The position numbers and the translations under genes are program-made. 64,000 nt of DNA, taken from contig JBAXAI010000006.1 in assembly GCA_037142615.1 (NCBI GenBank), forward strand, positions 85,118 to 149,117. The letters run 5' to 3'. A model generated the notes under the pieces. It worked only from the letters and a program-made list of their open reading frames with translations. It did not search any database and was not told the origin of the DNA. This DNA is from Spirochaetales bacterium. Its GTDB lineage: Bacteria; Spirochaetota; Spirochaetia; JABEVK01. Shown one piece after another: positions 14,081 through 45,080 of the stretch (within the stretch, counting starts at the first letter, position 1; every line of letters starts with the position of its first letter).

Positions 14081-14093
14081 GGGTCTGCTCTCC

Positions 14094-14918: not shown

Positions 14919-14960
14919 AACCCGCCCCCTTGCCCCACTGTCACGTCAGGCCCTCCCTTA

Positions 14961-14989: not shown

Positions 14990-15036
14990 CGAAATCTTTC
15001 CCTGTTACAGTAAGGCGGGATGCAAGGAGTCCAATC

Positions 15037-16209: not shown

Positions 16210-16258
16210 TCGTTGTCGATTTTAACCCTTGACAGCCGTGTTGGAACGGGTTGAAGAT
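16204..16258 (+). promoter_or_regulatory. Operator copy A2 and promoter of the DUF4867 gene
   Basis: TTTTAATCG-TTGT-CGATTTTAA (16204-16225), which resembles the 14963 motif, immediately followed by TTGACA (16229-16234). Confidence 0.65.
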
Positions 16259-16264
16259 GCCCGC

Positions 16265-16912
16265 ATGAAATATTTTTCTTGTGAGGACGAGGCCTTCCGG
16301 CCCTACGGCCGAGTGCTCTCCGGGTTACCGACCAGCGGTCTGGTCGATTGGATGCAGGCCCAGGTCAAGATTGCCGAGGGCACCCAGTACCAGCGGAGCG
16401 TCGGTGCCCTCGAGGACCTGCCAGGCCCCGAGCAACTGACCTGGAAGCAGTGGGCGTCGAAGGTGTTTTACGGCTCGTTCCCCGCGCAGGTGGGCTGGGT
16501 GGCCGGGCACAGCCGCAAACTCAACGCGCTGGAGTACCACAAAGCCAGCGAGATCACCGTGGCCACCACCGACCTGGTGCTGTTCCTGGGGCGCCTGCAG
16601 GACCTCCGCGACCACCGCACCTATGATTCCAGCCTTTTGGAAGGGTTCCGCGTTCCGGCAGGTACCGCAATTGAGATTTATTCGACCACGCTGCACTTTG
16701 CGCCCGCCACCCTGAGCCCCGCGGGGTTTCAGGCGGTGATCATCCTTCCCCTGGGGACCAACGCCCCGCTCGAAAAGGTGAACACCCAGGCCGCCGGCGA
16801 GGAAGCCCTGCTGTGGATGGCCAACAAGTGGCTTATCGCTTGTCAGGACTCGATTCCCGCCAAGCGCGGGGCCAAGGTGGGTATCTCGTCCAACCTCGAA
16901 TTGCCCGGCTGA
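16265..16912 (+). CDS. DUF4867-family protein (SftX-like, found in SQ clusters)
   Basis: FRPYGRVL, LNALEYHK.SE, VPAGTAIEIY.TTLHFAP, LP.GTN, NKWLIA. Confidence 0.85.
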   Translation: MKYFSCEDEAFRPYGRVLSGLPTSGLVDWMQAQVKIAEGTQYQRSVGALEDLPGPEQLTWKQWASKVFYGSFPAQVGWVAGHSRKLNALEYHKASEITVATTDLVLFLGRLQDLRDHRTYDSSLLEGFRVPAGTAIEIYSTTLHFAPATLSPAGFQAVIILPLGTNAPLEKVNTQAAGEEALLWMANKWLIACQDSIPAKRGAKVGISSNLELPG

Positions 16913-18033
16913 TCGGCCGGCAGGTCCAAAAAGAACGCTCGCACCGCGATGGCGGCCCCTCCTAAATAGGGAGCGGCCTCGTCGAGCGCCGAATGGCGGA
17001 TCACCGCGGCGGCCTGCGGGTTGGCGGTGAGTTCCACCAATTGGTCGACCAGCAGACCCAGGACCAGCGGGTGGTTGAGAAAGCTGCCGTAAAGCACCAC
17101 CCAGTAGGGGTCGAGCAGCTGGATGGCGTGGTCGATGGCCAGCGCCAAATGCCCCAGCGTCGTCTGGACCAGCTCCTTCACCCGGGCATCCCCGTCGGCC
17201 AGCGCCTGCAGGATCAACGCCGGTGACGCCAGCCCCGTAGCGGCCACCAACGCGGCGGGTGAGGCCAAGGTCTCCAGGCACCCGGTGCGGCCGCAGCGGC
17301 AGACCAGCTTGTTGCCCGGCACCAGCGTGTGACCGATCTCGCCCGAGCGGTCGTGCGACCCGGTGTCGATGCGGTGCTCCAGAATCAACGCCGAACCGAT
17401 GCCCGGTCCGTACTTGAGGAACAGCTGGCGGCCGTCGCCGGGGTTGCCGCCAAAGTCCATTTCGGCCAAGGCCAACGCGCGCACGTTATTTTCCAGGCAC
17501 ACGGGCACACCCAATGCGGCTTCCAGAAGCGCCACCACCGGCACGGGCTGGTCCCACAGGCCGTAGTCGTGCAAGGTGCGCCCCGTTTGCCGGTCCACGC
17601 TTCCCACCACCACCACCCCGACCCCCACAAGCTGTGCCACCGCGAGGTTGTGCGAGGCCGCCAGTTGCAGCAGTGAGGTGGCGACCCGCGCCAGGATTTG
17701 CTCCGGGGTTTCTCCGTCCAGCGGTGGCAGGCGGCTGGAAGCCAGCGGCACCCCATCGAGGCGGCACAGCGCCGTAGTGAGTCCCTCGGTCTCGATGGAC
17801 GCGGCCCCGACAAAAGATCGACTGTAGTCGAGGTCGACGAGAATCTTGCGGCGGCCGGCGCGGTTTTCGACCTCCTCGCCGCGTTCAACCAGCAGGCCGG
17901 CGTCGAGCATCTTGGCCGTCAGAATGGTCACCGCCGCCGGGGTGAGCCCAATGCGCGCCGCGATGTCTTTGCGCGACAAGGGGCCGCTCTTGCGCAGCAC
18001 CCGCAGCACGGCGATCTGACTCAGTAGTCGCAG
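16843..18033 (-). CDS. ROK-family transcriptional regulator 2
   Basis: GPLSRKDIAARIGLTPAAVT HTH, GRR, LENNVRALALAE, GEIGH..CRCGRTGCLE. Start codon uncertain (CTG 18033, GTG about 18009 or TTG 18114). Confidence 0.85.
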   Translation of the reverse strand: MRLLSQIAVLRVLRKSGPLSRKDIAARIGLTPAAVTILTAKMLDAGLLVERGEEVENRAGRRKILVDLDYSRSFVGAASIETEGLTTALCRLDGVPLASSRLPPLDGETPEQILARVATSLLQLAASHNLAVAQLVGVGVVVVGSVDRQTGRTLHDYGLWDQPVPVVALLEAALGVPVCLENNVRALALAEMDFGGNPGDGRQLFLKYGPGIGSALILEHRIDTGSHDRSGEIGHTLVPGNKLVCRCGRTGCLETLASPAALVAATGLASPALILQALADGDARVKELVQTTLGHLALAIDHAIQLLDPYWVVLYGSFLNHPLVLGLLVDQLVELTANPQAAAVIRHSALDEAAPYLGGAAIAVRAFFLDLPADQPGNSRLDEIPTLAPRLAGIES

Positions 18034-26624: not shown

Positions 26625-27857
26625 CTAGAACGCGTATTTGAACGTCGCCTCGACGACGCTATTGTTGTTCCACGAGCCCCAGGTCACCGCCGTGTCGCCA
26701 AGAAAGGCGAACCCGGCCAGCGTGGCGCTCAAGCCGTCCGCCACGGTGTAGGTGAGCTGTGGCGACACCATGCCGGCCCCGTCGAAGTCCCACGCGCTAA
26801 CCGCCTTCCAGGACCAACGGCTGTCGGGAGCAGCACTCAGCGCAAGCACGGCCTTCGCCTTCGCGGTGCCCTCGTACCCGGCGGTGTTGGTCCAGTCGAC
26901 GACGCCCTCGGCGATGGCCTTCACGCCAATGACCGGCAGGGTGTACTCGAGCGAGGCAACCCCCTGCGCTGTGGCGTCACCAGCCACCGGGTTCTGAGGG
27001 TCGGTATCGCGCCAAAGCCGACCTGCGGCCTCCGTTCGCAGCACAAGCCCTTCCAGAGCGACCACGGCGTCGGCACCCGCCAGCAGGAAACGGTCGTAGT
27101 CAAGTGTCGAAGTGGCCTTCATCTGCCCGGGAGTGCCCGCCGAGGCCAGCGTGACCGTGGCGCGAGGCAGGGGGTTGCGTCCCTGGTAGAACGTGACCCC
27201 GAAGTCGACACCCTGGAACACGTCGAGACTGGCCCCGGCGCGCCCACCCCACGCCAGGTTGTCCCAGATCAGCGCGGGCACCTGGTCGACCAGGGTGCGG
27301 CTGACAATGGTCACGCCGGTGGGGGGCGTCAGCGTCGTAGCCGGTTGCCACCGGGCCTCGGGAACAACGCCCTTTGCGAACGCCGGCACCAACACCAGGT
27401 CGAGCGAGAGTCCTGACCCAGTCAGAAGCACCCTTCCCGACGGCACGGGAATCTTCACCGAGTCCAGGGGGTGGCTCATGTCGCGCGGGTTCACCACGTC
27501 GAGAGGTGTGAACACGTCGGTGACACCCCAAGCGATGGTCTGGTTTCCCACCGAAACGTCGGCCGGCCCCAGATACGCCTTGACCCACGCGTCGGCCAAA
27601 GCGAACGAGGTTTGTCCCCCGGGGAGAAGCTTGGCTTGAAAACCGATGGAGTACTGACCGGCCGGAGCCTCGGCCGCACCGACGTTTCCGGCCACTTTGG
27701 CGTCGAATTGGGGGCCCGCCGCCGCAAGGTCGCTGGAGTTGTAGAACCAACCCCAGCCCGACTGCAGAGTGCCCGAAAAGGTCTGGGCGGAACTAGGCAA
27801 AAGGGCACCCAGCAGCAAGACTGCGGCAAGGGCCCGGCGAAGGTGTGTGCGTGTCAT
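26625..27857 (-). CDS. Outer-membrane beta-barrel protein (DUF1302/TP0788-like)
   Basis: Signal peptide, VGNQTIAWG.TDVFTPLDVVNPRD, terminal KYAF. Confidence 0.75.
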   Translation of the reverse strand: MTRTHLRRALAAVLLLGALLPSSAQTFSGTLQSGWGWFYNSSDLAAAGPQFDAKVAGNVGAAEAPAGQYSIGFQAKLLPGGQTSFALADAWVKAYLGPADVSVGNQTIAWGVTDVFTPLDVVNPRDMSHPLDSVKIPVPSGRVLLTGSGLSLDLVLVPAFAKGVVPEARWQPATTLTPPTGVTIVSRTLVDQVPALIWDNLAWGGRAGASLDVFQGVDFGVTFYQGRNPLPRATVTLASAGTPGQMKATSTLDYDRFLLAGADAVVALEGLVLRTEAAGRLWRDTDPQNPVAGDATAQGVASLEYTLPVIGVKAIAEGVVDWTNTAGYEGTAKAKAVLALSAAPDSRWSWKAVSAWDFDGAGMVSPQLTYTVADGLSATLAGFAFLGDTAVTWGSWNNNSVVEATFKYAF

Positions 27858-27866
27858 TTCGGCCTC

Positions 27867-28625
27867 CTACTGCTTCAAGAACCGCTCAGTGAACGTCGCA
27901 TCGCTCACGTCCTGGTCTACCTTCTGGTCGCTGACCTTGAGCTCGGTCTTGGAGCCGCTGGTCGAAGTCATCACGATGAGCGAAGGGAGCAAGTAGGCGC
28001 CCACCTTTTCAAGCGTGAGCACCTGCGCCTTGGCGAGTTTGCCCGCCTTGTAGTACTCGATCTTTCGCGCGGCGAAGTCACCCAAGTCGAGCGAGTACAC
28101 CAGCCTTTCGTAGCCCATCTCTTTTTTCGGCTTGGCTTCGATAGTGGCCGTGTTGTTGGCCGTGCTCAGCAGAGTGTAAGTGAAGTCGGCCTCGACGAAC
28201 CCGCTGATGTCGCGGTTGGTGAAGTCGGACCCGAAGAACGCCGAATCCTGATCCGAAGCCCCCGAACCGAGGCGGCGGACCTTGCCCAGCGCGGGCAGCC
28301 ACAGTTGGCTCTCGGTAGAGCCGTCGACCTTCTTCGAGGTGAGGAAGCCCGAGCCCTTGATGTCGCCGGGGGCCAGGAACTTGACGACCCGGCGTTCCAC
28401 CTCGCCCTTGGCGTTGTCGCCCGTGCCCCAGTTCATCATGGTGCGGGTCAGCGAGGCGCCGTTCTTGGTGATGGTCATCACCATGGTGGTGATCTCGGTT
28501 TTGGGTTTGGTTCGGTGGAAGTACTTGGCCATCAACTCGGCCCCCGAAAGGTCTTGCGCGGCGGCGGGCAACAGGCACGCGAGTGCGACGGCCGCCAAAC
28601 TGATTCTGAAAATGAACTTAAGCAT
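27867..28625 (-). CDS. Outer-membrane lipoprotein-sorting (LolA-like/TP0789-like) protein
   Basis: F.AP.DIKG.GFL, QLWLPALGKVRR, FFGSDFT..D, FTERFL. Confidence 0.85.
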   Translation of the reverse strand: MLKFIFRISLAAVALACLLPAAAQDLSGAELMAKYFHRTKPKTEITTMVMTITKNGASLTRTMMNWGTGDNAKGEVERRVVKFLAPGDIKGSGFLTSKKVDGSTESQLWLPALGKVRRLGSGASDQDSAFFGSDFTNRDISGFVEADFTYTLLSTANNTATIEAKPKKEMGYERLVYSLDLGDFAARKIEYYKAGKLAKAQVLTLEKVGAYLLPSLIVMTSTSGSKTELKVSDQKVDQDVSDATFTERFLKQ

Positions 28626-30879
28626 GGGAAAGCTCCTTTGATTTGGGTTTGCGAGGATTGCGCAGGAAGATTAGGCAGGCGGCGGGCAAAATGGTGAGGG
28701 TGAACAAGCCGACAATCATCACGGTGAGAACCATCACGCCGCCCAGGGTCGACACAGGAACCATTTGGCTGAAGGTGAGCGCCAAAAACCCTCCGCCGAG
28801 CGTGAGCGCCGTGAAAAACACCGAGCGACCCGAGGTGGCAAGGGCCGAAACCACGGCGTCTTCGGGGGACAGACCTGCTTGCCGGTCTTCCATATAGCGC
28901 ACGGTGAGGTGGATGGCGTAGTCGCCCACCCCGATGGCCAGAGCCCCAGCGAGGGCCGTGGCCAGGTTGAACGGCAGACCCGCCAAGCCCAGAATGCCGT
29001 ACTGAAGCACAATGGTCGAAATCAGCACGGTGATCGTCACCAGCGCGGCCCGCACGCTTCGGATCATGCTGTCGATCAGGATGACGAGCAGAATGGCCAG
29101 CGTCAGGCTCAAGATGAAGTCGTGCACGATGGTGTCTTCGACGGCCACCTCGGACAAAATGTCACCGGCGAACTGAACCTTGGCGGTGGAGCCCAGGTAG
29201 AAGTCGGTTCGGGCCTGCAACTTGGTGAGCAGCGCCTTGGTTTCGTGGGTTGGCAACCGGGGAGCCACGATGGTGACCACGCCGCGGGTGTAGTCGAGGT
29301 TGGTCAGCGACGTGATGTCGTCCACGCTGCCCGAGGCCTGGTAAACGAGCAGCTCCTGGGCCACCAGCTCGCGGCTTGCAGGCATACCCGCTTCACCCGT
29401 GAGCGTTTCGTGCAACGACCGCACCAGCGTCGCGAGCGAGGTCGAGGCGCCGAGTTGGGGAGCCGTGGTTTTCAGGTCTTCCTGAAAGGCCAGAAGACCT
29501 TTCAGCACTTGCGGATCCTGAAGGTCGCCGCTTACGAGGGCCTTCACCGCCGTGGAACCCCCAAACACTTCATCGACGGCATTCATACCCCGCACCACCG
29601 ACGAATCAGGCTTGAAGAACCCGACCAGCGAGGTGTTGGGCACGATGCGACCGATGCCGAACGCTGCAATGACGAGTGTAGCGACGCCTACCAACAGGAT
29701 CGCCCGAGGGTGGCGGCCGATCCAACGGCCGAGACGGCTCAACTGATGGCTGAGTACGCCGGTGTCTTCCAGCTTGACCCTCACCTTGGGCGCCCCAAGC
29801 ACGTTGAGCAAGCTTGGCACCAGCGTCAACGACGACACCATGGCGGTGAACACGCCCGTGGCGCACAGCACGCCGATTCCGCGCACCATCGCGAGGTCCG
29901 ACAGCAAAAACGTGAGCATCGAGGCCGTGATGGCCAGCCCCGAAACAAACACCCCGAGCCCGGTTTTGCCCAGCACGTTCAGAATGGCCTGACGCTTTTC
30001 GGTGCCCTGCGAAAGCTCGAGGAAGTAACGGCCCAACAAGTGGAGCGTGAACGAACTGCCCACCGCGAGCACGGCCACCGGCGCAATGATGGTGAGGGCG
30101 CCGAACTTGAGGTGGAGCCAACCGTACAGACCGGCACCCCACACCAGGCCGACGACGACCTGGAGCAGTGGCAGCCACATGCCCAGCGGCGAACGGAAGT
30201 TGAACAAAAACATCAGCAGGATGATCACCAGCGCGGTACCGCCAAGCGTCGGCATGTCGATGTGCATGGCGTTGAGCATGTACGATTCCATGGAGGGCAG
30301 TCCGGTGAGGTCGTAGGTACCCGTCCAGCGCTGCTTGACGGCCGCTTCCATGGCCGCAGCGATGGTGGGCAGGTCGACGGCGTCTTCAAACTCGACGACG
30401 ACGTTGGTCGAACTGCCATCGGCGGCTGCGAGCATGCCCGACTTGGTGGCGTAGTTGGTTGCCAGGTATTGGCGCAACGCCGCGATGTCGGTGCCCGAGG
30501 GATTGTCGCTTTCGACCATGTCGCTGCTCACCAGCAGGCCGTCAGTTTCGACCATTTTCTTGGTGTTGCTGAGCGAGGTGACCTTTTTGACACCGGTGAC
30601 CCCCTCGAGCGCCGCGGTGAGGGCTCTGACTTCGGTCAGGTGCCCCGGGGTAAACACGTCGGGGGCGCGCAGAACGAACACTTCGGTCCGGCCCGAGTTG
30701 AACTCGCGGCTGATTTGATCGTTCAGCTGCACGATGGCGTTGTTGTCAGGATTCAGCGCGTCGGCTGAGGCGTCCTGTACGATGTGCGTGGCTCCAACAG
30801 CCATGAACACGGTCAAGACGGCGAAGGCGGCGATAATCCACCAACTGCGGTCGAGCATTCCTTTCCAAAAAGTCTTCAA
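28618..30879 (-). CDS. MMPL/RND-family efflux transporter
   Basis: Two repeats of a periplasmic domain plus TM bundle, AIGVGDYAIH, GRSVFFTALT..GGF. TTG 30879 follows GAGGAGG (ORF track start 30897). Confidence 0.9.
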   Translation of the reverse strand: MKTFWKGMLDRSWWIIAAFAVLTVFMAVGATHIVQDASADALNPDNNAIVQLNDQISREFNSGRTEVFVLRAPDVFTPGHLTEVRALTAALEGVTGVKKVTSLSNTKKMVETDGLLVSSDMVESDNPSGTDIAALRQYLATNYATKSGMLAAADGSSTNVVVEFEDAVDLPTIAAAMEAAVKQRWTGTYDLTGLPSMESYMLNAMHIDMPTLGGTALVIILLMFLFNFRSPLGMWLPLLQVVVGLVWGAGLYGWLHLKFGALTIIAPVAVLAVGSSFTLHLLGRYFLELSQGTEKRQAILNVLGKTGLGVFVSGLAITASMLTFLLSDLAMVRGIGVLCATGVFTAMVSSLTLVPSLLNVLGAPKVRVKLEDTGVLSHQLSRLGRWIGRHPRAILLVGVATLVIAAFGIGRIVPNTSLVGFFKPDSSVVRGMNAVDEVFGGSTAVKALVSGDLQDPQVLKGLLAFQEDLKTTAPQLGASTSLATLVRSLHETLTGEAGMPASRELVAQELLVYQASGSVDDITSLTNLDYTRGVVTIVAPRLPTHETKALLTKLQARTDFYLGSTAKVQFAGDILSEVAVEDTIVHDFILSLTLAILLVILIDSMIRSVRAALVTITVLISTIVLQYGILGLAGLPFNLATALAGALAIGVGDYAIHLTVRYMEDRQAGLSPEDAVVSALATSGRSVFFTALTLGGGFLALTFSQMVPVSTLGGVMVLTVMIVGLFTLTILPAACLIFLRNPRKPKSKELSHA

Positions 30880-30901
30880 ACTTACCTCCTCAAACATTCA
30901 G

Positions 30902-30918
30902 TTCAACCACTTGGTTGA
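30902..30918. promoter_or_regulatory. TetR operator copy upstream of the MMPL gene
   Basis: TTCAACCACTTGGTTGA, a near-copy of the palindrome at 31587-31608. Confidence 0.7.
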
Positions 30919-30943
30919 CTCGAAGACAAAAAAAGAGACCCTC

Positions 30944-31585
30944 TCAGCGCAGGGTCACATCCACAAGACTCTTGGCCAGACCGACCTGTCGGTCCAGCAC
31001 CTGGGCCCAACGTTCGGGCTGCACATCGAGAAGAATCTGCAGGATGGGGCCGCCCAAAGTGGGGAACACCAGCAGCGAAATGACTCCCGTGAGCAGCACC
31101 TCGAGCCGGTCGCCCACTTCGGAAGCTGCCGGTGTGACGCCCTCGGGCTCCCGCGCCAGTTCCAGCAGGTGGGCAGGAACGGCGAACACGCGCAGTTCCT
31201 GCAGCAGGGTCCGGATGAGGGCGGGATTTCGGTTCACTTCGTTGATCAGAAACATGGGCATCTGCGGGAACTTGCGCAGGAACTGGGCCCGGTCGTCGAT
31301 CCAAAACTTGAGCACCTCGCGCAGCGACTGTCCCGCCACAGGCCCAGGTTGCCGGACCGACAAACCCTCGGCCGGACGGAGCAAGGCCTGCATTTCCTCG
31401 CGGAAGATGAGCAGGAAGAGGGTGTCTTTGCTGCGGTAGTAGTAGTGCAGCTGGGCCTTGTTGAACCCGGCGCGGTCGGCGATGGCCTGCATGGTAGCGC
31501 CGTCGTAGCCCTTGGCGACAAACACTTCTCTGGCAGCCTCTTTGATTTTGAGCGCGGAGGTTTCTTCGAGCACTTTCCCTTTCAT
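30944..31585 (-). CDS. TetR/AcrR-family transcriptional regulator
   Basis: IKEAAREVFVAKGYDGATMQAIADRAGFNKAQLHYYYRSKDTLF. Confidence 0.92.
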   Translation of the reverse strand: MKGKVLEETSALKIKEAAREVFVAKGYDGATMQAIADRAGFNKAQLHYYYRSKDTLFLLIFREEMQALLRPAEGLSVRQPGPVAGQSLREVLKFWIDDRAQFLRKFPQMPMFLINEVNRNPALIRTLLQELRVFAVPAHLLELAREPEGVTPAASEVGDRLEVLLTGVISLLVFPTLGGPILQILLDVQPERWAQVLDRQVGLAKSLVDVTLR

Positions 31586-31586
31586 C

Positions 31587-31621
31587 GGTTCAACCATATG
31601 GTTGAACCAAAAGATTGTCAA
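31587..31621 (-). promoter_or_regulatory. tetR promoter with perfect 22-bp operator palindrome
   Basis: GGTTCAACCATATGGTTGAACC (31587-31608) overlapping minus-strand TTGACA-N17-TATGGT. Confidence 0.8.
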
Positions 31622-31687
31622 GCACTCGTGAGAAGCTCGGCCCATGGCTGAACTTCCCGTGACCCGTCTTTGTAAACGGCTTCACTC

Positions 31688-31781
31688 CGGCTGGAGCCGT
31701 GCCGAGATTCCGTTTGCCGTCGCGGTCAATTTGCTGCTGTTCGGGCTGGTCGGCGTGTTCGACGTGGCCGGCACACTCCTA
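31688..31781 (+). pseudogene. Possible remnant of an MFS transporter gene
   Basis: Translates GWSRAEIPFAVAVNLLLFGL-VGVFDVAGTLL, resembling two non-adjacent MFS segments joined together. Confidence 0.35.
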
Positions 31782-32756
31782 AGGTCGCGCTTCGGTGGTC
31801 GTGATCCTCTGGCTGATCTGCGTGCCGGCTTTTCCCGCGATGGCGTCGAGCATGCGGTCGAGGGTCGTGATGATGGCCGTTCCCTCGGGGTGGGCTCCCG
31901 TGTACTTCACAGTGGCCATGACCTTTTCGAGCATGCTGCCCTTGGCGAAGTAGCCGTTGTCGCAGCGTTCCTTGGCCTCGGTGTAGGTCAATTTGGCCAA
32001 GCGCCTCTCGGTAGGTTTTCCAAAGTCGAGGGCGATGCCGTCGCCTCCAGCCGTGGGAATCACAAGGTAGTCGGCGCGCAACAGGGTGGCCAGCAGCGCA
32101 GAGGTGAGGTCTTTGTCGATCACGCCCTCGATTCCGTTGAGGATGTTGCCCTCGCGGACCACAGGCACCCCGCCTCCCCCACACGCGATCACCAGATAGC
32201 CGTCTTCCGAGAGCTTCTGGATCTGCCGTAGCTCGACCAGTTCGAGCGGCGCCGGCGAGGGCACACAACGGCGCCAGCCCCGTCCGGAGTCTTCCATGAC
32301 CGTCCAGCCCATTTCTTGGGCCAGGTGCTCGGCAGCCTCTTTGTCGTAGAACGAGCCGATAGGCTTGGAAGGGTTGGCAAACGCAGCATCGTCTTTGCTG
32401 ACAACGGTTTGTGTGATCACGGTGGCCACGGGAATGTCGAGCCCTTCCATCGCGAACGCCTCGTGGAAGGCCTTCTGGAACATGTAGCCGAGCGTACCTT
32501 GGGTGTTGGCAATGGCGTAGTCCATGGGCACCGGCGCCAACTCCTTGGCGGCCAGTTCGGAGCGGCGCAGAGCGAAGCCCACCTGCGGGCCATTACCGTG
32601 GGTGAGCACGACCCGCCAACCTTCCTTGACCAGTTTGACCACCGAGGCGGCGGTTTGTTCGGCGGCCTCGAATTGGTCGGCGATCGAGGCCTTCTTGGGG
32701 TCCTTGATGAGGGCGTTTCCTCCGACGGCGATGACGACGAGTTTGGTGTTGGCCAT
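31779..32756 (-). CDS. arcC: Carbamate kinase
   Basis: VIAVGGNAL, THGNGPQVG, TQG.LGY, NPSKPIG.FY, GWRR.VPSP.P, GGGGVPV, GVIDKD, FAKGSM..KV. Confidence 0.95.
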   Translation of the reverse strand: MANTKLVVIAVGGNALIKDPKKASIADQFEAAEQTAASVVKLVKEGWRVVLTHGNGPQVGFALRRSELAAKELAPVPMDYAIANTQGTLGYMFQKAFHEAFAMEGLDIPVATVITQTVVSKDDAAFANPSKPIGSFYDKEAAEHLAQEMGWTVMEDSGRGWRRCVPSPAPLELVELRQIQKLSEDGYLVIACGGGGVPVVREGNILNGIEGVIDKDLTSALLATLLRADYLVIPTAGGDGIALDFGKPTERRLAKLTYTEAKERCDNGYFAKGSMLEKVMATVKYTGAHPEGTAIITTLDRMLDAIAGKAGTQISQRITTTEARP

Positions 32757-32757
32757 G

Positions 32758-34170
32758 TCATTGAACTCCTTTGAGAGCAAGAGCCTCGAGGGCCTGAACA
32801 AAGCAGGCCAACGGGGCATTGGTGATACCGGCACCGATTTGTCCGATGCCGGCCTGCTGGTGCGCGATGCCGGTGTTGATCACTGGCAAAATGGACGTGT
32901 CGACCACCTTGCGGGCGTCAATACCGGCTGGACAACCCCCGAAGTCGAGCGGCGGCAGGGTGAAGGCCGCGTTCTGTCCCAGGGTGATGTGGAGCATGCG
33001 TCGGGTGTTGGCGATAGCGTCGGCCGGGGTTCCCCCGACAAACTGCACGATGGCAGGCGAGGCGGCCATCGAAAAGCCGCCCAACCCGGCGGTCTCGGTG
33101 ATGGCGCTATCGCCCAGGTCGCGTGCCGCGTCGTCGCGGCTGTAGCCCGAAAAGTACAAGCCCTCGATGAAGTTGGCCGGTGCTGTGAACCACTGGCCCG
33201 GAAGACCCGACAACTGAATGCCGAAATCGACCCCGTTGCGCGCCATCACCGTCACCAGCGTGGAGTTCTTGACGCCCTCTGCGGCTTGCAACATGCCCTT
33301 GCACGCGGCCATCGACAGGTTGAGGAAGAAGTGGTCGTTGGAGGCCACAAAGGCCAAGGTCTCGCGCACCTTCTGCAGGTCGAGCGACGGAAGCTCACCC
33401 AGAGCGGCCAAGGTCAGCTTTTTGAAGAACAGAGCGCTGGCCGCGGCGTTGCGGTTGTGCACCTCGTCGCCCATGTGGAGCGCCTGCGCCATCAGGGGCT
33501 TGAGCGCTACCGGCCCCAGGCTTGCCAGGATAACCTTCAGGGTCGGGGCCAGCACGTCGCGCATCCACACCAAGCGCTCGAGCACTTCGGGCGAGTTGGC
33601 CCCGAAGCGCAGCACTTTGCCCAAGCCTTCGTTCAGGTTGCAGTACGATCGGTGGCCGTTGGTCGTGTTTTCGACGATCCACACCGGCATCGAGGGGCTG
33701 ATGACTCCGGCCATAGGGCCGACGGCGTTGTGGTGGTTGCAGGCATCGAGATTCACCCCGCCGCCGACCACCAGCGCCTCGGCCTCGCCCAGCGTTTTGG
33801 CCCAGCCTTCGTACAAAATGGCTCCGAGCACCGCTCCCTTTTGAGGGCCACACATGGCACTCCACGAAATGGGGGGTCCCGAATGCAGCAAGGTTCGGGC
33901 ACCAAAACCCGGGAGTTCGTCGCGCGCCACTCCGAGCCCCACCAGCACCGGCTGGGCGCTCAGATAGCGCTCGTAGGCCGTCTGGTTGGCGGCATTTACT
34001 TGGGGATGGTTGATCAGCTCAGCCAGCGCCATTCCAGCCTGACTATTGCCTTCAGCCGGGGGTCGCCACTCGAGGTCGAGGGCCGTTCCTCCGTGGGCGC
34101 GGATCGGCTCACTGAACGACTTCAGCCCGATATTGATCACCCGGATTTCACTCGACAGCAGGGGATTCAT
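32758..34170 (-). CDS. ylbE: DUF1116 protein (YlbE/AllG/YahG-like carbamoyltransferase subunit)
   Basis: WRPPAEG N-terminal segment, LLHSGPPI, AVGPMAG, NEGLGKVLRFGAN, MGDEVHNRN, FFLNLSMA, DLGDSAITET.G.GG, INTGIAH. Confidence 0.9.
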   Translation of the reverse strand: MNPLLSSEIRVINIGLKSFSEPIRAHGGTALDLEWRPPAEGNSQAGMALAELINHPQVNAANQTAYERYLSAQPVLVGLGVARDELPGFGARTLLHSGPPISWSAMCGPQKGAVLGAILYEGWAKTLGEAEALVVGGGVNLDACNHHNAVGPMAGVISPSMPVWIVENTTNGHRSYCNLNEGLGKVLRFGANSPEVLERLVWMRDVLAPTLKVILASLGPVALKPLMAQALHMGDEVHNRNAAASALFFKKLTLAALGELPSLDLQKVRETLAFVASNDHFFLNLSMAACKGMLQAAEGVKNSTLVTVMARNGVDFGIQLSGLPGQWFTAPANFIEGLYFSGYSRDDAARDLGDSAITETAGLGGFSMAASPAIVQFVGGTPADAIANTRRMLHITLGQNAAFTLPPLDFGGCPAGIDARKVVDTSILPVINTGIAHQQAGIGQIGAGITNAPLACFVQALEALALKGVQ

Positions 34171-35708
34171 GCTTGGCTCCCGGCGACGAGTTGTCGCACC
34201 AGTTCGGCGGCGTGGGCATTGCTCTCGGCAACGAAAACCCCGGCGCCGCTTAAAGCCGCCCGCTGTTGGGCCAGGTTCTGGGGGTCCTTGTCGGTGCCGC
34301 AGACAAAGCCCACAAACTCCAGCTTGCGACCTTCGGCTTGGGCAACCGCCCGTGAGCGGGCGATCACCTCGACGAGGCCCGCCGCCGGGTTCTCATGCGC
34401 TCCGTAGCCGAGCACGAGGTCCAAGAGAATCAGCCCGGTCTGGGGGTCTTTTGCCTCTTGCAGCAGGCGATCGTTGCGGGTGGAAGGATCGATCATCGGG
34501 TGGGGTTTTCCGCGGGTAAAGTCGTCATCGCCCAGGTCAATCAGGGTATGACCCTGGCTCTTCCACAGGTCAGGAAGTTTTTGCACGCCTTTGGTCGGGG
34601 TATTGGAAAATACCTCACCCAGAAAAGGCTGCAGCAAAATCTGGGCCTCGTAACAGAACGTGCCGCCAGTGAAAAGTCCCCGGACAAAGCCCGCGGCGTG
34701 GCGGCCTTCGAGCAGGGCACGGTCGCTATCGCCGCGTTCGGGGCCCGCCTTTGTTCGCTGGCCCGTCAAGAGACCGACAGCCAGCACGGCAGCCTGTTCC
34801 AGCGTCGGGGCAAAGGTCAGCTTGCCCCGAGCGGGTCTGATTTCGTCGCCGAGAAAGCAAATCACGATGGGCTTGGTGACTTTCTGCGCCTCTTCCAGAA
34901 TTCTGGCAGCAACCGACTCGGCCGGCGGCTTGGAAAGCAACACAATGACCTTTGTCTTTTCGTCGGCGGCGAAGAGCCCAAGGGCAGACAGCATCGTGAT
35001 GCCCCCGACTTCCTGGCTCAAGTCGTGCCCGCCGGTGCCAATGGCGTGCGAAATACCTTGCCCCAAGGAATCGATCAGGCAGGTCACCTGCTGGATGCCC
35101 GTGCCCGACGCCCCCACGACGCCGATGGCCCCGGGGGTCACCACATTGGCAAACGCCAGCGGAACCCCACCCAAGATGCTGGTACCGCAGTCGGGGCCCA
35201 TCACCAGCAAATCATGGTCGCGGGCGTAGGTCTTGAGCTTCACTTCTTGCCAACCCGGCACATTGTCGCTGAACATCATGACGTTGAGGCCCTGCTTGAG
35301 GGCCTTGAGCGCTTCGGCACCGGCAAACTCCCCGGGCGTCGAAATAAGCACCACGTTGCCAAGCGGGTCTTGTGCCAGCGCCATCGCGATCGAGCGGGGG
35401 GGCTCGGTCTTGGCCGAAGAGTCACCGACGCCCTTCTTCTCGTCGAGGGCCTGCTGGGCAAACTCCAAAGCCGCCTGACCCTGGGCTACCGAGTTTGCCT
35501 GCACCACCACGAGCAGGTCGTTGGGTCTGGCTGCCAGCGGTTGGCTCAGCAACCCGGTGTTGAGCAGCAGGTCGAGGTTGGCGGCGGTGGCCATCTGCAC
35601 CGAGGCAGATACCACGCCGTCCTGGGCGGTCAACTTGGCCGACAATTGCATCAGGGCCACCGAGTCGCGGTAGTACCCCGGCAGGAACTGCTGAACCCTC
35701 TCCATCAC
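34167..35708 (-). CDS. fdrA: FdrA (AllF/YahF-like, succinyl-CoA-ligase-like fold)
   Basis: [78 protein letters not shown]. Confidence 0.92.
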
Positions 35709-36370
35709 GCCAAGGCTTCAATGATTCGCTGCGAAGGGGTGACCCAGCCGAAGATTCCGCCCTGGGCCTTGATCATCTCGAGGGCCAGCCGGTTGAACTC
35801 GGGAAAGTACGACGCCACGGCGTCGGAAGCGACCACGCACTCGTAGCCCCGATCGTTGGCTTCGCGCACGGTGGTCGTGACGCACACCTCGGTGGTGACG
35901 CCGCAGCAGATCAGGGTCTTGATGCCGTAGTTGCGCAGAATCAGGTCGAGGTCGGTGGCGTGGAACGACCCCTTGCCGGGCTTGTCGATCACCGGCTCGC
36001 CGGGCAGGGGCTGAAGCTCGGGGATGATGCCGTGGCCTTTTTCGCCCCGGATCAGGATGCGGCCCATGGGCCCGACGTCGCCAATGCCGGTCTTGAGGTT
36101 GCCCCGGGCTTTTTTGGTGGGCGGACAGTCCGACATTGTCGGGTCGTGGCCCTCACGGGTGTGGAGCACCCGAATTCCTGCCTTCCGGGCGGCCGTGAGC
36201 AGGGCTTGGCAGGGTCCTATCGCTGCCCGGAGCAGGGTCACGTTGTTGCCCAGCAGGGTGCCAAACCCCCCTTCTTCCACAAAGTCCCGCTGCATGTCGA
36301 TCACGACCAGGGCTGTCGTTTTAGGGTCAAACTCGAGGTTGTACGGCTCGGCGACGATCTCTTTTTTCAT
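35705..36370 (-). CDS. trtA: Triuret hydrolase (isochorismatase-like cysteine hydrolase)
   Basis: [43 protein letters not shown]. These are TrtA-type residues rather than BiuH-type (GGYVD.MGY, TTDVC, GATD, GGVF). Confidence 0.82.
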
Positions 36371-36756
36371 TGGGGTGTTCCTTTCTTGCTCTGCATGTAC
36401 TTGCGCCAGTCGCCAAAGTGCGAAATATCGACGTGTTCGGGTCGGATCTTGTCTTTCGGGAACAGAATACCATCCACGACACGCCCGTCTTCCAGTTCTA
36501 CCGGTCCGTCGTACAGGTGAGGGGGCTCCCCGGCCTGAACCCGGTTCCAGACGTCGTCGGGAAGCCGGTAGAGCTCCCCGGCGACAGCGACGCCGCCCTG
36601 CTGCACTTCGTACATGCCAGGGTGAACGTCGCCGATGCTGAAGACCCGGTATCTGGGCTTGGTGTAAAACTCACCCAGAAACTCCGCGCCGGCGAGGTTC
36701 TTGTGCAGGGCCAATCCCCGCATCAAGGTCCCGTTGACAAAGAGGGTCTTCGGCAT
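36367..36756 (-). CDS. Stand-alone GGCT/AIG2-fold protein resembling the allophanate hydrolase C-terminal domain
   Basis: [20 protein letters not shown]...[30 protein letters not shown]. Confidence 0.8.
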
Positions 36757-36759
36757 GGT

Positions 36760-38352
36760 TCAGTCGTCCGCTGCTTCGCTGACGGGCTTCCAACTGATGG
36801 CATGACCGTCTTTCTTTTCCTGGTACATAAAGTAGACAAACACCAGAGCGGCCAGAAGGTAGCCGAACGAGACTGTCGGCGAGGCATTGAAGGCCAACTG
36901 GCTTCCGTGGATGAACCCGAAGAACGACAGGACGACGGCGATGCCCGCGTAGACGGCGGCCCAGTTGAAGCGTTTTTCGATGACGAACACACCGATGGCT
37001 CCCAGCACCAAACCAGCCAAGATGCCACCACCACCGGTCACCGAGATGCCGTTGTAGTACACGGCCGCGTTCGAGGCCATGGCCGAGGCGAGCTCGGGGC
37101 TCACGCCCTTGCCGGTGGCCACACTCACCACGTTGTTGATCTGGGTATGCAGCCAGTCAGCAATGTTGGGAACCAAGGCCAGGATGATCGCTGGCGCATG
37201 GCGCCGGGGAGTCGCTTGAAAGGCCTGCGCCCCGATGATCAAACCAATGAACAGCAGAATCGGCAAAATCGCCACCAGCGGGATCACCGAAAGCAGCAAG
37301 GCCGTCAGCCCAAGCATACACACCAGACCGATGGCGATGCCGGTGGCCAGCGAGTAGCCGATGCGTCCGCCGATGGCCTTCCAGCCAGGGTGGCCGATGT
37401 AAACGGCGGGAGGGAACGGGGAACCAGCGAAGGCGCCCAGAACAGCACCCGAACCGTCGGCCAGCAACACGGCGCGGAGGTTGTATTCATCCCCAGCGGT
37501 GGCGGCCGATTCCACGTTGTTCATGGCCTCGGTAAAGTTGTAAATGCCCAGCGGGATGGCGGTGACCAGCAGCGGCCACACTTGGTCCATCGAAAGCGAG
37601 AACACATCGAGGCTGAACATCGGGATGCGGAACCCAAACTGCCGGAACGAATCGCCCACGGCGGCCGGATGCATGTACTCCGAATAGCCCGGTAGCCCCA
37701 GAAGCACGGCTCCCCAAGCCAAAATCGCCCCCACGACGACGACCGCGAGGCCGCCCGGAATGCCAAATGGCAGGCGAACGTTTCCCATCCACGAAATCAT
37801 GATAATCATGAAACAGATCAGGCCGATCCAGGCCACGTCGAACATCTGGAAGGCGGGAGCCATCGAGATGAAGGTGATCGAGATACCGGCCAGGGTGCCC
37901 AACATGGCGGCCTTTGGCGTGAACTTGCGGATGATGGGCCCCACCAGCGCACCGGCCATGACAATCAGACCGATGATGAGCGCCCACACCAAACCGAGAA
38001 CCCACGCCATCACCGGATTACCGGTGGTCAAATAGGTCGGCAGCATGACGGCAAACACAACGATGAACATGTGCGGCACCGAGGGGCCGTACGGCAAAGC
38101 TGCAACCGTGTCACGCTTTTCCTTCTTGGCCTTTTGGAACGCGAGGTAGGCGTAAAAAATGTTGCCCAGCATAAGCGCCAGGCCCAAGGCAGGAAGGATG
38201 CGCCCGTAGACGGTGGCCTCCGGGATCTTGATGACGAACAGGGAAAGGCTCGTCAGGACAATGGTGTTCAAGAGGACGTTGGTAAACAGGCCGAAAAAGC
38301 CGTTTAAGTCACCCAGGACCCACAGTTTCGGTTTGGTCAGATCTTGTGCCAT
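36760..38352 (-). CDS. Nucleobase/ureide permease (NCS2-like)
   Basis: WV.GD.NGFFG, ALPYGPSVPH, AMLGTLAGI, NVESA..AGD, PAVYIGHPGWK..GGR.GY, FFGFIH, about 12-14 TM segments. Confidence 0.85.
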   Translation of the reverse strand: MAQDLTKPKLWVLGDLNGFFGLFTNVLLNTIVLTSLSLFVIKIPEATVYGRILPALGLALMLGNIFYAYLAFQKAKKEKRDTVAALPYGPSVPHMFIVVFAVMLPTYLTTGNPVMAWVLGLVWALIIGLIVMAGALVGPIIRKFTPKAAMLGTLAGISITFISMAPAFQMFDVAWIGLICFMIIMISWMGNVRLPFGIPGGLAVVVVGAILAWGAVLLGLPGYSEYMHPAAVGDSFRQFGFRIPMFSLDVFSLSMDQVWPLLVTAIPLGIYNFTEAMNNVESAATAGDEYNLRAVLLADGSGAVLGAFAGSPFPPAVYIGHPGWKAIGGRIGYSLATGIAIGLVCMLGLTALLLSVIPLVAILPILLFIGLIIGAQAFQATPRRHAPAIILALVPNIADWLHTQINNVVSVATGKGVSPELASAMASNAAVYYNGISVTGGGGILAGLVLGAIGVFVIEKRFNWAAVYAGIAVVLSFFGFIHGSQLAFNASPTVSFGYLLAALVFVYFMYQEKKDGHAISWKPVSEAADD

Positions 38353-38398
38353 GCGAAACTCCTCTATGCGATTCATGTGCTTGCCCAGCTACGCCAGG

Positions 38399-38443
38399 AT
38401 TGTATACAATTGCTAGCGTAATCCCGGTTTTCTGCTTTGTCAA
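38399..38443 (-). promoter_or_regulatory. Promoter of the triuret operon with GntR/FadR-type operator
   Basis: Palindrome ATTGTATACAAT (38399-38410) just downstream of minus-strand TTGACA-N17-TACGCT. A related TTGTATAC-TGATATAC lies at 38531-38546 in front of gntR. Confidence 0.75.
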
Positions 38444-38583
38444 TATCTTCTTGATTCTTTAGTATTATGTTGTTATATAATACTTTAAGTATCTATCTGC
38501 GAAATTTGAGTTCCGTTCGAACAAGATTCTTTGTATACTGATATACTGAGAACGAGCCCCGGAAGGCGGGAGGAGACCGACAA

Positions 38584-39270
38584 GTGGCCGAGAACTTGAG
38601 TGCCGACGTGTACGAACGTCTGAGCGAGCGCATCCTCAAACTGGACTATCCGCCGGGGTACCGACTGACCGAGGAAGGGTTGTGCGCCGAGTTCCAGGTG
38701 AGCCGTAGCCCGGTGCGGGAAGCGCTGAACATGCTGGTGCAGCGTGGCCTGGTCCGAAAGAATCCGCGGCAGAACTACGTGGTTCGTGAACTCGACGTCA
38801 AAGAGATCCGCGATGCCTACCACGTACGGCTCGTGCTGGAGCTTGAGGTGATGACACTCCTGTGTCGGCAGGGTGTCGACCAGGCGATCCTCGACCGGCT
38901 CGAAGCCCACTGGCTTGGCGTGCGCGACCGCTTGCCCGAGGGCATGGCGCACGCTGCCGACGACGACGAGAGGTTTCACCGCGAACTCGCCGAGGCCACG
39001 GGCAATCAAGCTCTAACCCGGACCTTGGCCGCCATCGATTCGCAGATTCACTTTGTACGCCTGTACGATATCACCAACATCGAACGCCTTCGCCGGACCT
39101 GCACCGATCACCTGGAGATCCTCACCGCGCTGCGCCGTCAAGACCTCAAGAATGCGGTGGTCGCCTTGGCCAGGAATATCGAGTGGGCCGAGGCCAACGT
39201 CGAGGGAGCGCTCAGCGACGTGGCCTCGCGGAGCCGTGCCGGAGGGCGCGAAGGAACCTCGAGGGGCTAG
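38584..39270 (+). CDS. GntR-family (FCD) transcriptional regulator
   Basis: PGYRLTEE.L..EFQVSRSPVREAL, D.RFH..L....GN, DH..IL.AL. Confidence 0.92.
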   Translation: MAENLSADVYERLSERILKLDYPPGYRLTEEGLCAEFQVSRSPVREALNMLVQRGLVRKNPRQNYVVRELDVKEIRDAYHVRLVLELEVMTLLCRQGVDQAILDRLEAHWLGVRDRLPEGMAHAADDDERFHRELAEATGNQALTRTLAAIDSQIHFVRLYDITNIERLRRTCTDHLEILTALRRQDLKNAVVALARNIEWAEANVEGALSDVASRSRAGGREGTSRG

Positions 39271-40325
39271 TCGACCAGCCCCGCCAACTGGCCGCACGCC
39301 GCTGCGATGGATTCGCCGGCTGACCGACGAACTGTCGATACGATGCCCGCCTCGCGGAGTGCCCGCTGGAAGGCATCAAGAACCGGCCGTGCCGACGGTG
39401 ACCAACTGCCCGAAATGCCGGGGTTGTAGGGAATCAAATTGACATGAGCGTCCCGGCCGGCAACCAAGGCGATCAACTCGGCCAGTTCGCGCTCGCTGTC
39501 GTTGACTCCGGCGATCATGATGTATTCCAAGAAGAGGCGGTGGCCGGTGTTGTCTTGGTAGCGTCGAAGGGCTTCCATCAGCTTTTCGAGCGGCCAGCGC
39601 CGGCAGCCGGGCATCAGGGTGTCGCGCAGGTCCTGCCTCGGGGCGTGGAGCGAAACCGCCAGCCTGACCTTGGGAAACTCGCGCCCGAACCTTTCGATGG
39701 CCCCGACCACCCCGCAGGTCGAAACCGACAGGTAGCGCGGCGCCAACTCAAAGCGCCGCTGGTCGGTCAGGCCGCGTAGAGCCTCTGCCAGGGCCTCGAA
39801 GTTGAGCAGGGGCTCGCCCATGCCCATGAACACGACATTGCGCAACCGGCCGCCCTCAGCCCGCAGTTGCTCTACAGCCCAGGTGGCCTGTTCCAGAATC
39901 TCGGCCGCGCCCAGGTCGCGAATCAGGCCAAGGCGCCCGGTAGAGCAAAAGGCGCAGCCCAGGGCGCAGCCAATCTGGGTGCTCACACACAGGGTGTTGC
40001 GGCCCTCGCGCTGCCGGAGGAGCACCGCTTCAAACCGCTGCCCGTCGGGGGCTTCGAACAACGCCTTGGTTGAGCCATCGGCAGCGGCTTCGAGGCGTTT
40101 TGTCCTTGTGGTCTTCCACTCGAAAAGCTGGGCCACCTCAACCGCCAAGGGCTCGGGTAACCGCGCAAGGGCGGCTTCCCAGGTGACTCCCTCGCGAAAA
40201 AGCGCCTTTCTGAGCGCCGAATAGCCTTGTTGGCCTCCGGTTCGGGTTCGGAGGATGCTCAGAACGGCTCCTTCGTCATGAAACGAAGGGCGAAGCGACC
40301 CAGAGGGCGCAGGCGGGCTGGTCAT
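39267..40325 (-). CDS. rlmN: 23S rRNA (A2503-C2) methyltransferase, radical SAM
   Basis: CVSTQIGCALGCAFCSTG, VVFMGMGEP, SLHAP, EYIMI.GVND, NLIPYN, AACGQL. Confidence 0.88.
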   Translation of the reverse strand: MTSPPAPSGSLRPSFHDEGAVLSILRTRTGGQQGYSALRKALFREGVTWEAALARLPEPLAVEVAQLFEWKTTRTKRLEAAADGSTKALFEAPDGQRFEAVLLRQREGRNTLCVSTQIGCALGCAFCSTGRLGLIRDLGAAEILEQATWAVEQLRAEGGRLRNVVFMGMGEPLLNFEALAEALRGLTDQRRFELAPRYLSVSTCGVVGAIERFGREFPKVRLAVSLHAPRQDLRDTLMPGCRRWPLEKLMEALRRYQDNTGHRLFLEYIMIAGVNDSERELAELIALVAGRDAHVNLIPYNPGISGSWSPSARPVLDAFQRALREAGIVSTVRRSAGESIAAACGQLAGLVD

Positions 40326-45019: not shown

Positions 45020-45080
45020 TTTGTGGGGTGCACCATCAATGCACAAGCCTCCTGTACATTTGTATACGGAGGCATTCACC

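Follow-up and report, generated by a model that had tools for sequence, protein, structure and literature searches.

A TrtA-type triuret hydrolase gene coupled to FdrA/AllG and carbamate kinase genes in a Spirochaetales bacterium: a candidate ATP-yielding route of ureide breakdown

Introduction

The operon described here lies in a 64,000-nucleotide stretch of DNA from a Spirochaetales bacterium, probably a freshwater spirochaete (the window), and it raises the question of why a gene for a triuret hydrolase-type enzyme is closely coupled to genes for an FdrA/AllG-type carbamoyltransferase and a carbamate kinase. The operon comprises six minus-strand genes in head-to-tail arrangement, from position 38376 to 31779, in the order permease, AH_C protein, TrtA-type hydrolase, FdrA, AllG (DUF1116) and carbamate kinase (Table 1). 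The window spans positions 85118-149117 of contig C6, at the end of that contig, in a genome (G000; assembly GCA_037142615.1) of 4.27 Mb that is 96.7% complete. Absences reported for this genome are to be read as 'not found' at that completeness, and many of the other carriers of the genes are metagenome-assembled genomes (MAGs).

To our knowledge, only a purely hydrolytic route of triuret breakdown is known. An earlier note on this DNA had proposed that the operon conserves energy: triuret would be hydrolysed to carboxybiuret, the biuret formed from it would be split by phosphate into urea and carbamoyl phosphate, and carbamate kinase would then make ATP. We find the note right in outline and unproven in its key step. 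Our preferred reading, to which we assign a probability of about 0.6, is that the cassette would serve the ATP-yielding breakdown of triuret or a close ureide through carbamoyl phosphate, replacing the hydrolytic BiuH and AtzF steps. The operon itself is real and intact, and it is a new, AllH-less spirochaetal member of a widespread uncharacterised cassette.

Results

The hydrolase is of the TrtA type

Among solved structures, the hydrolase matched TrtA best (6xix, 285.6 bits) and BiuH less well (6azo, 221.8 bits); on the NCBI model for BiuH, NF050097, it scored 274 bits, under the cut-off of 370. The catalytic triad D24, K129 and C162 is present at the aligned positions. Twelve of the thirteen TrtA residues are kept (D24, F29, F35, N41, E72, K129, K132, E160, C162, Y187, Q202 and I205), and the sole deviation, A134 to S, was reported not to be deleterious in TrtA (PMC7948467). 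All six residues that discriminate between the two enzymes (F35, N41, E160, Y187, Q202 and I205) are of the TrtA type in the window, the BiuH consensus at these positions being Y, Y, D, T, Q and V (PMC7948467). At eight signature positions the BiuH-signature copies of loci L100, L102, L176 and L187, which served as a control, have Y Y S D C T Q V. The signature test is thus discriminating. Judged by its sequence, the hydrolase is a TrtA-type triuret hydrolase, as the earlier note had it, with the full specificity signature. The published TrtA is described as ultraspecific (PMC7948467).

Downstream enzymes of the hydrolytic route are missing from the genome

The biuH and atzF genes that are operon partners of trtA in the characterised strains were found neither in the window nor elsewhere in the genome. 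G000 has two isochorismatase genes, the second of which gave only a weak YcaC-like match and is not BiuH-like, so that no BiuH was found. The amidase-family matches in G000 were GatA, a generic amidase beside cydDC/acs and a partial match on C6; the last covers 74 of 445 profile positions, the two full-length amidases score below the allophanate-hydrolase cut-off, and no AtzF was found. A search of the genome for the urease alpha subunit was negative, no allantoinase exceeded the cut-off in G000, and there are no allantoin genes near the operon. The statement of the earlier note that the window lacks biuH, the AtzF amidase and urease thus holds for the whole genome, and the objection that it had foreseen, biuret turnover by a biuH or atzF gene elsewhere in the genome, finds no such gene in G000.

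Ten other carriers of the cassette were inspected for BiuH. A BiuH-signature gene is present in two (G061 and G065), one (G062) is ambiguous and seven have none, among them the complete genome of Klebsiella sp. MISC125 and Phytobacter ursingii. Neither AtzF over the cut-off nor urease was found in G000, G002, G068 and G069, of which G002 belongs to the same genus as G000.

The pairing of TrtA with FdrA and AllG recurs across phyla

A scan for AllG with one genome per species gave 80 loci encoding the closest relatives of the window's AllG, and these were then searched with the window proteins by tblastn. In 25 of the 80 loci a TrtA-type gene, 63-74% identical to that of the window, stands beside FdrA-AllG. 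Carbamate kinase is present in 23 of these 25 loci, and a second isochorismatase-like gene within about 10 kb in none of them. The TrtA signature was found in all 23 loci in which it could be checked (one of them N-truncated), the other two being cut at a contig end and dropped. Such a survey of neighbourhoods had been suggested in the earlier note.

When 84 AllG rows were placed in a quick maximum-likelihood tree, the AllG of the window fell in a clade of 36 rows (SH-aLRT 98), 27 of which are linked to TrtA. Because this clade is distinct and 27 of its 36 rows lie beside a TrtA-type gene, the pairing of TrtA with FdrA/AllG is not due to chance. It recurs across Chloroflexota, Pseudomonadota and Myxococcota as well as in G000, and the nearest relatives of the window's AllG outside the genus come from a Myxococcota/'delta' MAG (L018) and a Pseudomonadota genome, G433 (L171). 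Five of the nine clade members that are not TrtA-linked lie on contigs cut near the genes (L017, L026, L032, L043 and L061). The other four have a different hydrolase gene nearby: a PF01425 amidase beside AllH-FdrA-AllG-kinase in L015, L021 and L022, and a PF04909 amidohydrolase in L038; in these loci the amide hydrolase may have been swapped.

The sister clade, with 47 rows, has a PF04199 'cyclase' gene as its partner and spans Spirochaetota, Thermotogota, Bipolaricaulota, Bacillota and others, and the AllG of E. coli K-12 is a distant outgroup on a branch of 1.83. The cyclase-linked clade also holds a second AllG of G000, which groups with Spirochaetota and so marks G000 as probably a spirochaete. 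Since this copy groups with its own phylum and the TrtA-linked copy elsewhere, G000 appears to possess one vertically placed FdrA/AllG cluster and an acquired one, the latter being that of the window. The second cluster lies on contig C43 (L007, about 771-17423, minus strand) and comprises FdrA, AllG, the PF04199 'cyclase', a 228-residue protein of unknown function, a thiolase-like protein, AllH and carbamate kinase; FAD and molybdopterin subunits of the xanthine-dehydrogenase type and a xanthine/uracil permease are also encoded there.

The distribution of TrtA was followed in more closely related genomes. At E<=1e-20, TrtA is present in two of four other genomes of the genus, in two of seven other genomes of the family, both with canonical clusters of the BiuH/TrtA/AtzF/Bmp-ABC type, and, among 49 genomes of the class outside the family, in none. 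The cluster L100 of a sister genus (G010) encodes a GntR/FCD regulator, a Bmp-type ABC transporter, a BiuH-signature hydrolase, a TrtA-like protein with Y35 and a full AtzF. With this canonical cluster in L100 and the cassette in G000, both solutions occur within one bacterial family.

In an even sample of 401 Pseudomonadota genomes, a TrtA-type gene (E<=1e-80) occurs in 18. Within about 9 kb of this gene, the 17 genomes besides the centre genome showed FdrA-AllG-kinase (3), the permease alone (8), AtzF/BiuH/Bmp (4) or none of these (2). By these counts the permease is the commonest partner of TrtA, and FdrA/AllG represents one of three or more options for the downstream steps. This is the pattern expected if FdrA/AllG and the kinase replace BiuH (plus AtzF). 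In a quick tree of TrtA, 13 rows with the TrtA signature from contexts other than AllFG form one clade (SH-aLRT 100), and the AllFG-linked rows lie outside it.

The AllH subunit is absent from the operon

The FdrA/AllG-type enzyme of E. coli has a third subunit, AllH. All three genes are needed in vivo: oxamate fell from 17.7 mM to 0, 0 and 1.2 mM in allF, allG and allH deletion strains, respectively (PMC11326118). No match to PF11392 (AllH/DUF2877) was found in the window, and the only AllH gene of G000 is that of the cyclase-linked cluster on C43. In G002, AllH lies between TrtA and FdrA, with the junctions TrtA-TAA, 7 nt, AllH...TAA, 2 nt, FdrA, whereas the window reads TrtA-TGATG-FdrA. Compared with G002, the AllH open reading frame (ORF) is precisely absent from the window, and at the very site of the deletion the genes are again translationally coupled. 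The earlier note overlooked this absence, and its account of the subunit make-up is incomplete.

The deletion recurs in independent data. In a run of another study, a contig of 4772 nt matches the window colinearly and at equal length from 33311 to 38082, a segment that includes the AllH-less junction; the differences are many substitutions and a single pair of 1-base indels, an insertion and a deletion separated by five bases. Because this independent contig is colinear across the junction, the absence of AllH is not an assembly error. The same AllH-less gene order was found in G433, with no AllH match anywhere in that genome. Other related loci retain the gene: PF11392 matches were obtained in ten (L011, L012, L015, L018, L019, L021, L022, L038, L039 and L051) and tblastn matches to AllH in L016, L023, L027, L033 and L043; one candidate ORF in L020 gave no PF11392 match. 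Conservation between G000 and G002 is 86-89% for the permease, AH_C, TrtA and the kinase, but only 70% for FdrA and 78% for AllG. FdrA/AllG may have adapted to act without AllH, may borrow the C43 copy in trans, or may be impaired.

A further feature concerns the border between the two remaining subunits. Residues 3-52 of the window's AllG align with residues 505-554 of K-12 AllF (34% identity, E 3e-7); the segment of about 50 residues that begins AllG in the TrtA-linked clade is the C-terminus of AllF in K-12. This shift implies that the gene boundary moved within one enzyme complex, and that FdrA and AllG act as one enzyme. The natural AllH-less form can answer whether the third subunit is needed.

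The AH_C protein and the choice of carbamoyl donor

The best solved relative of the AH_C protein is a stand-alone protein of 137 residues (5c5z, 72.6 bits), which by citation in PMC7558591 is protein c4763 of uropathogenic E. coli. The window's protein lacks an amidase domain and scores 58 bits on TIGR02713, for which the cut-off is 511, so that it does not qualify as AtzF. An AH_C domain, alone or within a full AtzF, was found in 18 of 27 TrtA-AllFG loci. It is stand-alone in nine of them (the window, G002, L018, L019 and five enterics); in the other nine a full AtzF gene diverges from TrtA, as recognised by Pfam in L012, L020, L027, L030 and L051 and by layout in L024, L025, L029 and L031. 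A stand-alone AH_C was found in none of the canonical-type clusters L100, L148, L149, L101 and L102. Our full-text search found no paper joining N-carboxycarbamate with allophanate hydrolase.

The loci with a full AtzF bear on the carbamoyl donor. Among five genomes of this type that were examined, none has a urea carboxylase over the cut-off, and a BiuH-type gene is absent from two (G063 and G064). With AtzF present and urea carboxylase and, in G063 and G064, also BiuH missing, the simplest source of an AtzF substrate would be the cassette itself, by the reaction carboxybiuret + phosphate -> carbamoyl phosphate + allophanate.

The proposed pathway

Under the preferred reading, the permease would import triuret or a related ureide, and the TrtA-type hydrolase would remove one terminal amide as ammonia to yield carboxybiuret. 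FdrA/AllG, a paralogue of E. coli AllFGH, would then move the remaining terminal carbamoyl group to phosphate, as homology and conserved synteny suggest, and carbamate kinase, by the function of its family, would convert carbamoyl phosphate and ADP to ATP, ammonia and CO2. The favoured donor, tentatively, is carboxybiuret, which would give allophanate, possibly followed by allophanate giving carbamate; biuret is a less likely donor, and other compounds account for the rest. The AH_C protein may decarboxylate an N-carboxy-ureide, either carboxybiuret or allophanate. In the genomes that have AH_C only (G000, G002, G068 and G069), allophanate could be phosphorolysed in turn, or allophanate or carboxybiuret could be decarboxylated and urea discarded. 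In the AllH-less copy FdrA/AllG would work alone, or the AllH of C43 would serve in trans. From the energy route of the earlier note, the formation of ATP through carbamoyl phosphate is retained as the best reading; biuret as the donor becomes one of several possibilities, with carboxybiuret or allophanate favoured.

A more far-reaching version, which we consider doubtful, is that the two-subunit, AllH-less FdrA/AllG strips carbamoyl groups successively (carboxybiuret -> allophanate -> carbamate), so that triuret would be fully mineralised for a gain of as many as two ATP per molecule, with none of BiuH, AtzF and urease needed. If true, sequential phosphorolysis would add a ureide pathway of a new kind, and a new specificity would be gained by an enzyme class of which little is known. 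Urate oxidation produces triuret, which is also an impurity of urea fertiliser (PMC7948467); an anaerobe could then ferment such a by-product for energy. If the general reading is correct, the newly defined FdrA/DUF1116 carbamoyltransferases would have a second class of substrate, ATP would be gained at substrate level from a polyurea, and a function could be given to a cassette of about three in ten complete E. coli genomes, where it is testable in tractable hosts.

Several observations weigh against this reading. The substrate of FdrA/AllG is assigned by inference. AllH is needed in E. coli, so the AllH-less operon may be weak or inactive unless the C43 copy serves, and that copy is only 28% identical to the AllH of the G002 cassette. 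TrtA genes occur without FdrA/AllG, which indicates that TrtA does not require this module, and only three of the 17 further Pseudomonadota carriers of TrtA have an AllFG context. Two carriers, G061 and G065, have BiuH elsewhere in the genome. AtzF is reported to act weakly on biuret (PMC3944691), which softens the argument for allophanate drawn from the AtzF loci. The role of the AH_C protein as an N-carboxy-ureide decarboxylase is putative, and both the AllG and the TrtA tree are quick trees.

Alternative readings

The exact route of the earlier note is a sub-case of the general model and, though unlikely, comes next in order. Carboxybiuret would become biuret, by the AH_C protein or spontaneously, FdrA/AllG would phosphorolyse biuret to urea and carbamoyl phosphate, and urea would be waste. 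A stand-alone AH_C gene directly upstream of TrtA suits this route, as does the absence of BiuH from G000 and seven of the ten other carriers; the half-life of carboxybiuret, which decays to biuret, is about 20 min, other pathways have a decarboxylase, TrtB (PMC7948467), and the allantoin route of E. coli likewise discards oxamate (PMC11326118). However, with neither urease nor AtzF, G000, G002, G068 and G069 would forfeit half of the nitrogen, and the full AtzF of nine cassettes would be left unexplained, given the lack of urea carboxylase in the five such genomes examined and of BiuH in two of them, a point weakened by the side activity of AtzF. Chemical reasoning also speaks against it, in that biuret is neutral and the known substrate, oxalurate, carries a carboxylate. 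A more distant alternative, which we hold to be improbable, is that two independent pathways merely adjoin: TrtA and AH_C would release triuret nitrogen, and FdrA/AllG and the kinase would be an ordinary oxalurate-splitting oxamate carbamoyltransferase at the end of purine or allantoin breakdown. In comammox Nitrospira, allFGHK genes beside trtA, biuH and atzF were read as an oxalurate pathway (PMC12625717), FdrA and AllG of the window pass their family models, and Ldh_2 (AllD-family) genes lie on other contigs of G000. Yet the stop codon of TrtA and the start codon of FdrA have a base in common, the pairing recurs across phyla in an AllG clade apart from E. coli AllG, no allantoinase over the cut-off was found in G000, and with BiuH, AtzF and urease not found the product of TrtA would have no onward route. 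G000, moreover, already has an FdrA-AllG-AllH-kinase cluster beside xanthine-dehydrogenase-type and xanthine-permease genes.

It could also be argued that the operon is a decaying copy in which the loss of AllH inactivated the carbamoyltransferase, leaving at most the permease, AH_C and TrtA in use. The requirement for AllH in E. coli (PMC11326118), its presence in G002 and nearly every related locus examined, and the lower conservation of FdrA and AllG between G000 and G002 all point this way. We give this reading slightly less credence still, as all six frames are open and coupling is exact at the deletion, the related strain in another study keeps the AllH-less layout despite many substitutions, G433 has the same AllH-less order with no AllH in its genome, and an AllH gene is available on C43. 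The least credible of the alternatives, and a very improbable one, is that the TrtA-like enzyme acts on another amide, for example an oxalyl-ureide such as oxaluramide, which would yield oxalurate, and that FdrA/AllG keeps its known specificity. The range of substrates tried for TrtA was limited (PMC7948467), and the AllFG-linked TrtA rows lie outside the 13-row clade of other contexts. Against this stand the published ultraspecificity of TrtA (PMC7948467) and the retention of all triuret-specificity residues in every AllFG-linked copy checked.

The permease has the predicted fold of UraA-type carriers

For the permease, Pfam gave no match at E<=10, nor was there a PDB sequence match below E 0.7; the nearest named Atlas cluster was Xan_ur_permease, with a score of 0.89. 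An AF2 model built from 32 homologues had a pLDDT of 83.7 and a pTM of 0.78. With this model, the 48 Foldseek matches listed within ranks 1-50 were all carriers with a 7+7 inverted repeat, with a best E of 1.7e-6, probability 1.00 and TM 0.33-0.52 among those listed; they belong to the SLC26/SulP, NCS2/SLC23, AZG and SLC4-type classes (for example BicA, SLC26Dg, SVCT1, UraA, UapA and AZG1). By its predicted structure the permease thus has the UraA/UapA/SLC26/AZG carrier fold, and by sequence it belongs to no Pfam family.

Homologues of the permease were found in 22 of the 25 TrtA-AllFG loci. In eight of the 17 Pseudomonadota carriers (L174, L177, L180, L181 and L183-L186) the permease accompanies TrtA alone, with no FdrA/AllG. 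The permease is a probable importer of triuret or a close ureide, and its family, for which Pfam has no model, is a candidate family of triuret transporters. The cassettes of E. coli and of a Vibrionaceae MAG have an NCS1-type permease instead. Five Chloroflexota (Anaerolineae) loci (L011, L013, L014, L035 and L041) have two tandem permease paralogues, about 50% and 44% identical to that of the window, and no AH_C in the locus.

Comparison with characterised and uncharacterised systems

The operon resembles allFGHK of E. coli K-12 in that a carbamate kinase gene comes after those for the FdrA-type and DUF1116-type subunits within a single operon, and in the presumed phosphorolysis of a carbamoyl-N bond to carbamoyl phosphate, from which ATP is made (PMC11326118). 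It differs in that identity is only 43% for AllF, 52% for AllG and 38% for AllK, AllG falls in a separate clade with K-12 on a long branch, no AllH is present in the operon, the neighbours are TrtA, AH_C and the permease and not allECD, and the AllF/AllG boundary is shifted by about 50 residues; the window's AllG is not an orthologue of E. coli AllG in an allantoin (allECD) context. With the hydrolytic TrtA-(TrtB)-BiuH-AtzF pathway of Herbaspirillum sp. BH-1 and Rhizobium (PMC7948467) it shares the first enzyme with its catalytic triad and specificity residues, and a GntR/FCD-type regulator. In contrast to that pathway, BiuH and the AtzF amidase are lacking in the window and in G000, and FdrA/AllG and the kinase are encoded downstream instead; in place of the Bmp/ABC system of the canonical cluster in the sister genus there is a single permease of the 7+7 fold.

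In arginine deiminase-type routes, a nitrogen-rich compound is converted to carbamoyl phosphate, from which carbamate kinase then makes ATP. The pathway proposed for the window would share carbamoyl phosphate and the ATP-forming step, but its enzyme forming carbamoyl phosphate would be of the FdrA/DUF1116 type and not of the ornithine-carbamoyltransferase fold (PMC11326118).

An orthologous core is found in an accessory cassette of E. coli, with the gene order cysteine hydrolase, DUF2877, FdrA, DUF1116, arcC, allophanate-hydrolase-related protein, cytosine permease and LysR. Identities to the window are 71% for the hydrolase, which has the full TrtA signature, 62.5% for AllG, 52.5% for the kinase, 49% for FdrA and 41% for AH_C; the AH_C protein of this cassette corresponds to the solved structure 5c5z. 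Unlike the window, this cassette keeps AllH between TrtA and FdrA, encodes an NCS1-type permease and a LysR regulator, and has AH_C after the kinase. Among complete E. coli genomes its frequency is 29% (1560 of 5426), and the cassette was also found in cultured strains of Phytobacter, Kosakonia and Klebsiella. In Phytobacter diazotrophicus DSM 17806 (L034, about 10001-12060), no carbamate kinase match was obtained between AllG and AH_C, which may be a deletion; Kosakonia sp. S29 and Phytobacter ursingii, whose cassettes are nearly identical to it, have the kinase at this place.

Full-text literature searches found no test of the E. coli accessory cassette as a unit. In comammox Nitrospira, trtA, biuH and atzF were reported beside allFGHK and taken for two separate pathways in PMC12625717, the sole paper that our full-text searches, which did not extend to its supplementary discussion, found to join triuret or biuret with carbamate kinase or a transcarbamylase. 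The cassette is thus neither rare, as its frequency in E. coli shows, nor unnoticed, as its collocation is in print.

Operon structure, regulator and neighbouring genes

The coordinates of the genes and of two candidate operator sites are collected in Table 1. Profile matches and coordinates bear out the six-gene operon and divergent GntR gene described in the earlier note, and the operator palindrome that it had pointed out is joined by a second site.

Table 1. Genes of the operon, its divergent regulator and candidate operator sites in the window
Feature	Position	Strand	Length	Evidence or remark
Carbamate kinase	31779..32756	-		NF009007 332.1 bits (cut-off 266); TIGR00746 351.7 bits, just below 358.25
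AllG/DUF1116-like subunit	32758..34170	-	470 aa	PF06545 310.9 bits
FdrA/AllF-like subunit (succinyl-CoA-synthetase-alpha-like)	34167..35708	-	513 aa	NF004760 504.6 bits (cut-off 433)
TrtA-type isochorismatase-like cysteine hydrolase	35705..36370	-	221 aa	PF00857 154.9 bits
Stand-alone AH_C/GGACT-like protein	36367..36756	-	129 aa	PF21986 106 bits
Membrane protein/permease	36760..38376	-	538 aa	predicted 7+7 'UraA-type' fold; probable start 38352
Perfect palindrome TTGTATACAA, candidate GntR operator near permease start	38400..38409	.	10 bp	read directly
Second TTGTATAC site near GntR start, followed by direct repeat of TATACTGA	38531..38538	.		read directly
GntR+FCD regulator, divergent from operon	38584..39270	+		PF00392 64.1 bits; PF07729 62.9 bits

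The genes are tightly packed. ATGA overlaps occur at the AH_C/TrtA and FdrA/AllG junctions, the base shared by TrtA and FdrA lies in the TGATG at their junction (FdrA ATG at 35705), and the gaps are 3 nt between the permease and AH_C and 1 nt between AllG and the kinase. The start of the kinase is most likely M27 of the listed ORF, at 32756 and not at 32834. Promoter and terminator scans were at chance level (3 against 1.0 and 11 against 8.8), and the ends of the operon are not marked by them.

The 8-mer TTGTATAC, which recurs in the intergenic region between operon and regulator, is present in four copies in the window against 0.12 expected, and none of 100 shuffles reached four; the fourth copy, at 45060-45067, lies outside the control region of the operon. 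Both intergenic TTGTATAC sites recur in the matching region of G002, where TTGTATACTGATATA of the second site is found as the reverse complement. An inverted-repeat search of the intergenic region detected nothing, because the arms of the palindrome are only 5 nt long. The palindrome presumably fits the consensus of FadR-type GntR regulators. Regulator genes of the GntR/FCD type are also neighbours of related cassettes and of the canonical BiuH/TrtA/AtzF clusters. Through the TTGTATAC(AA) sites, the GntR/FCD protein would probably keep the operon repressed as long as no ureide ligand is bound.

Downstream of the operon, at 26625-31645 on the minus strand, lie genes for a TetR regulator, an HAE3/MMPL-type RND transporter, a LolA-like protein and a protein of 410 residues of unknown function, which are probably unrelated to it. 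Beyond the regulator, at 39267-40325 on the minus strand, an RlmN-like radical-SAM rRNA methyltransferase is encoded, which scores 283 bits on TIGR00048, just below the cut-off of 290, and far below the Cfr-family cut-offs, in keeping with a housekeeping gene.

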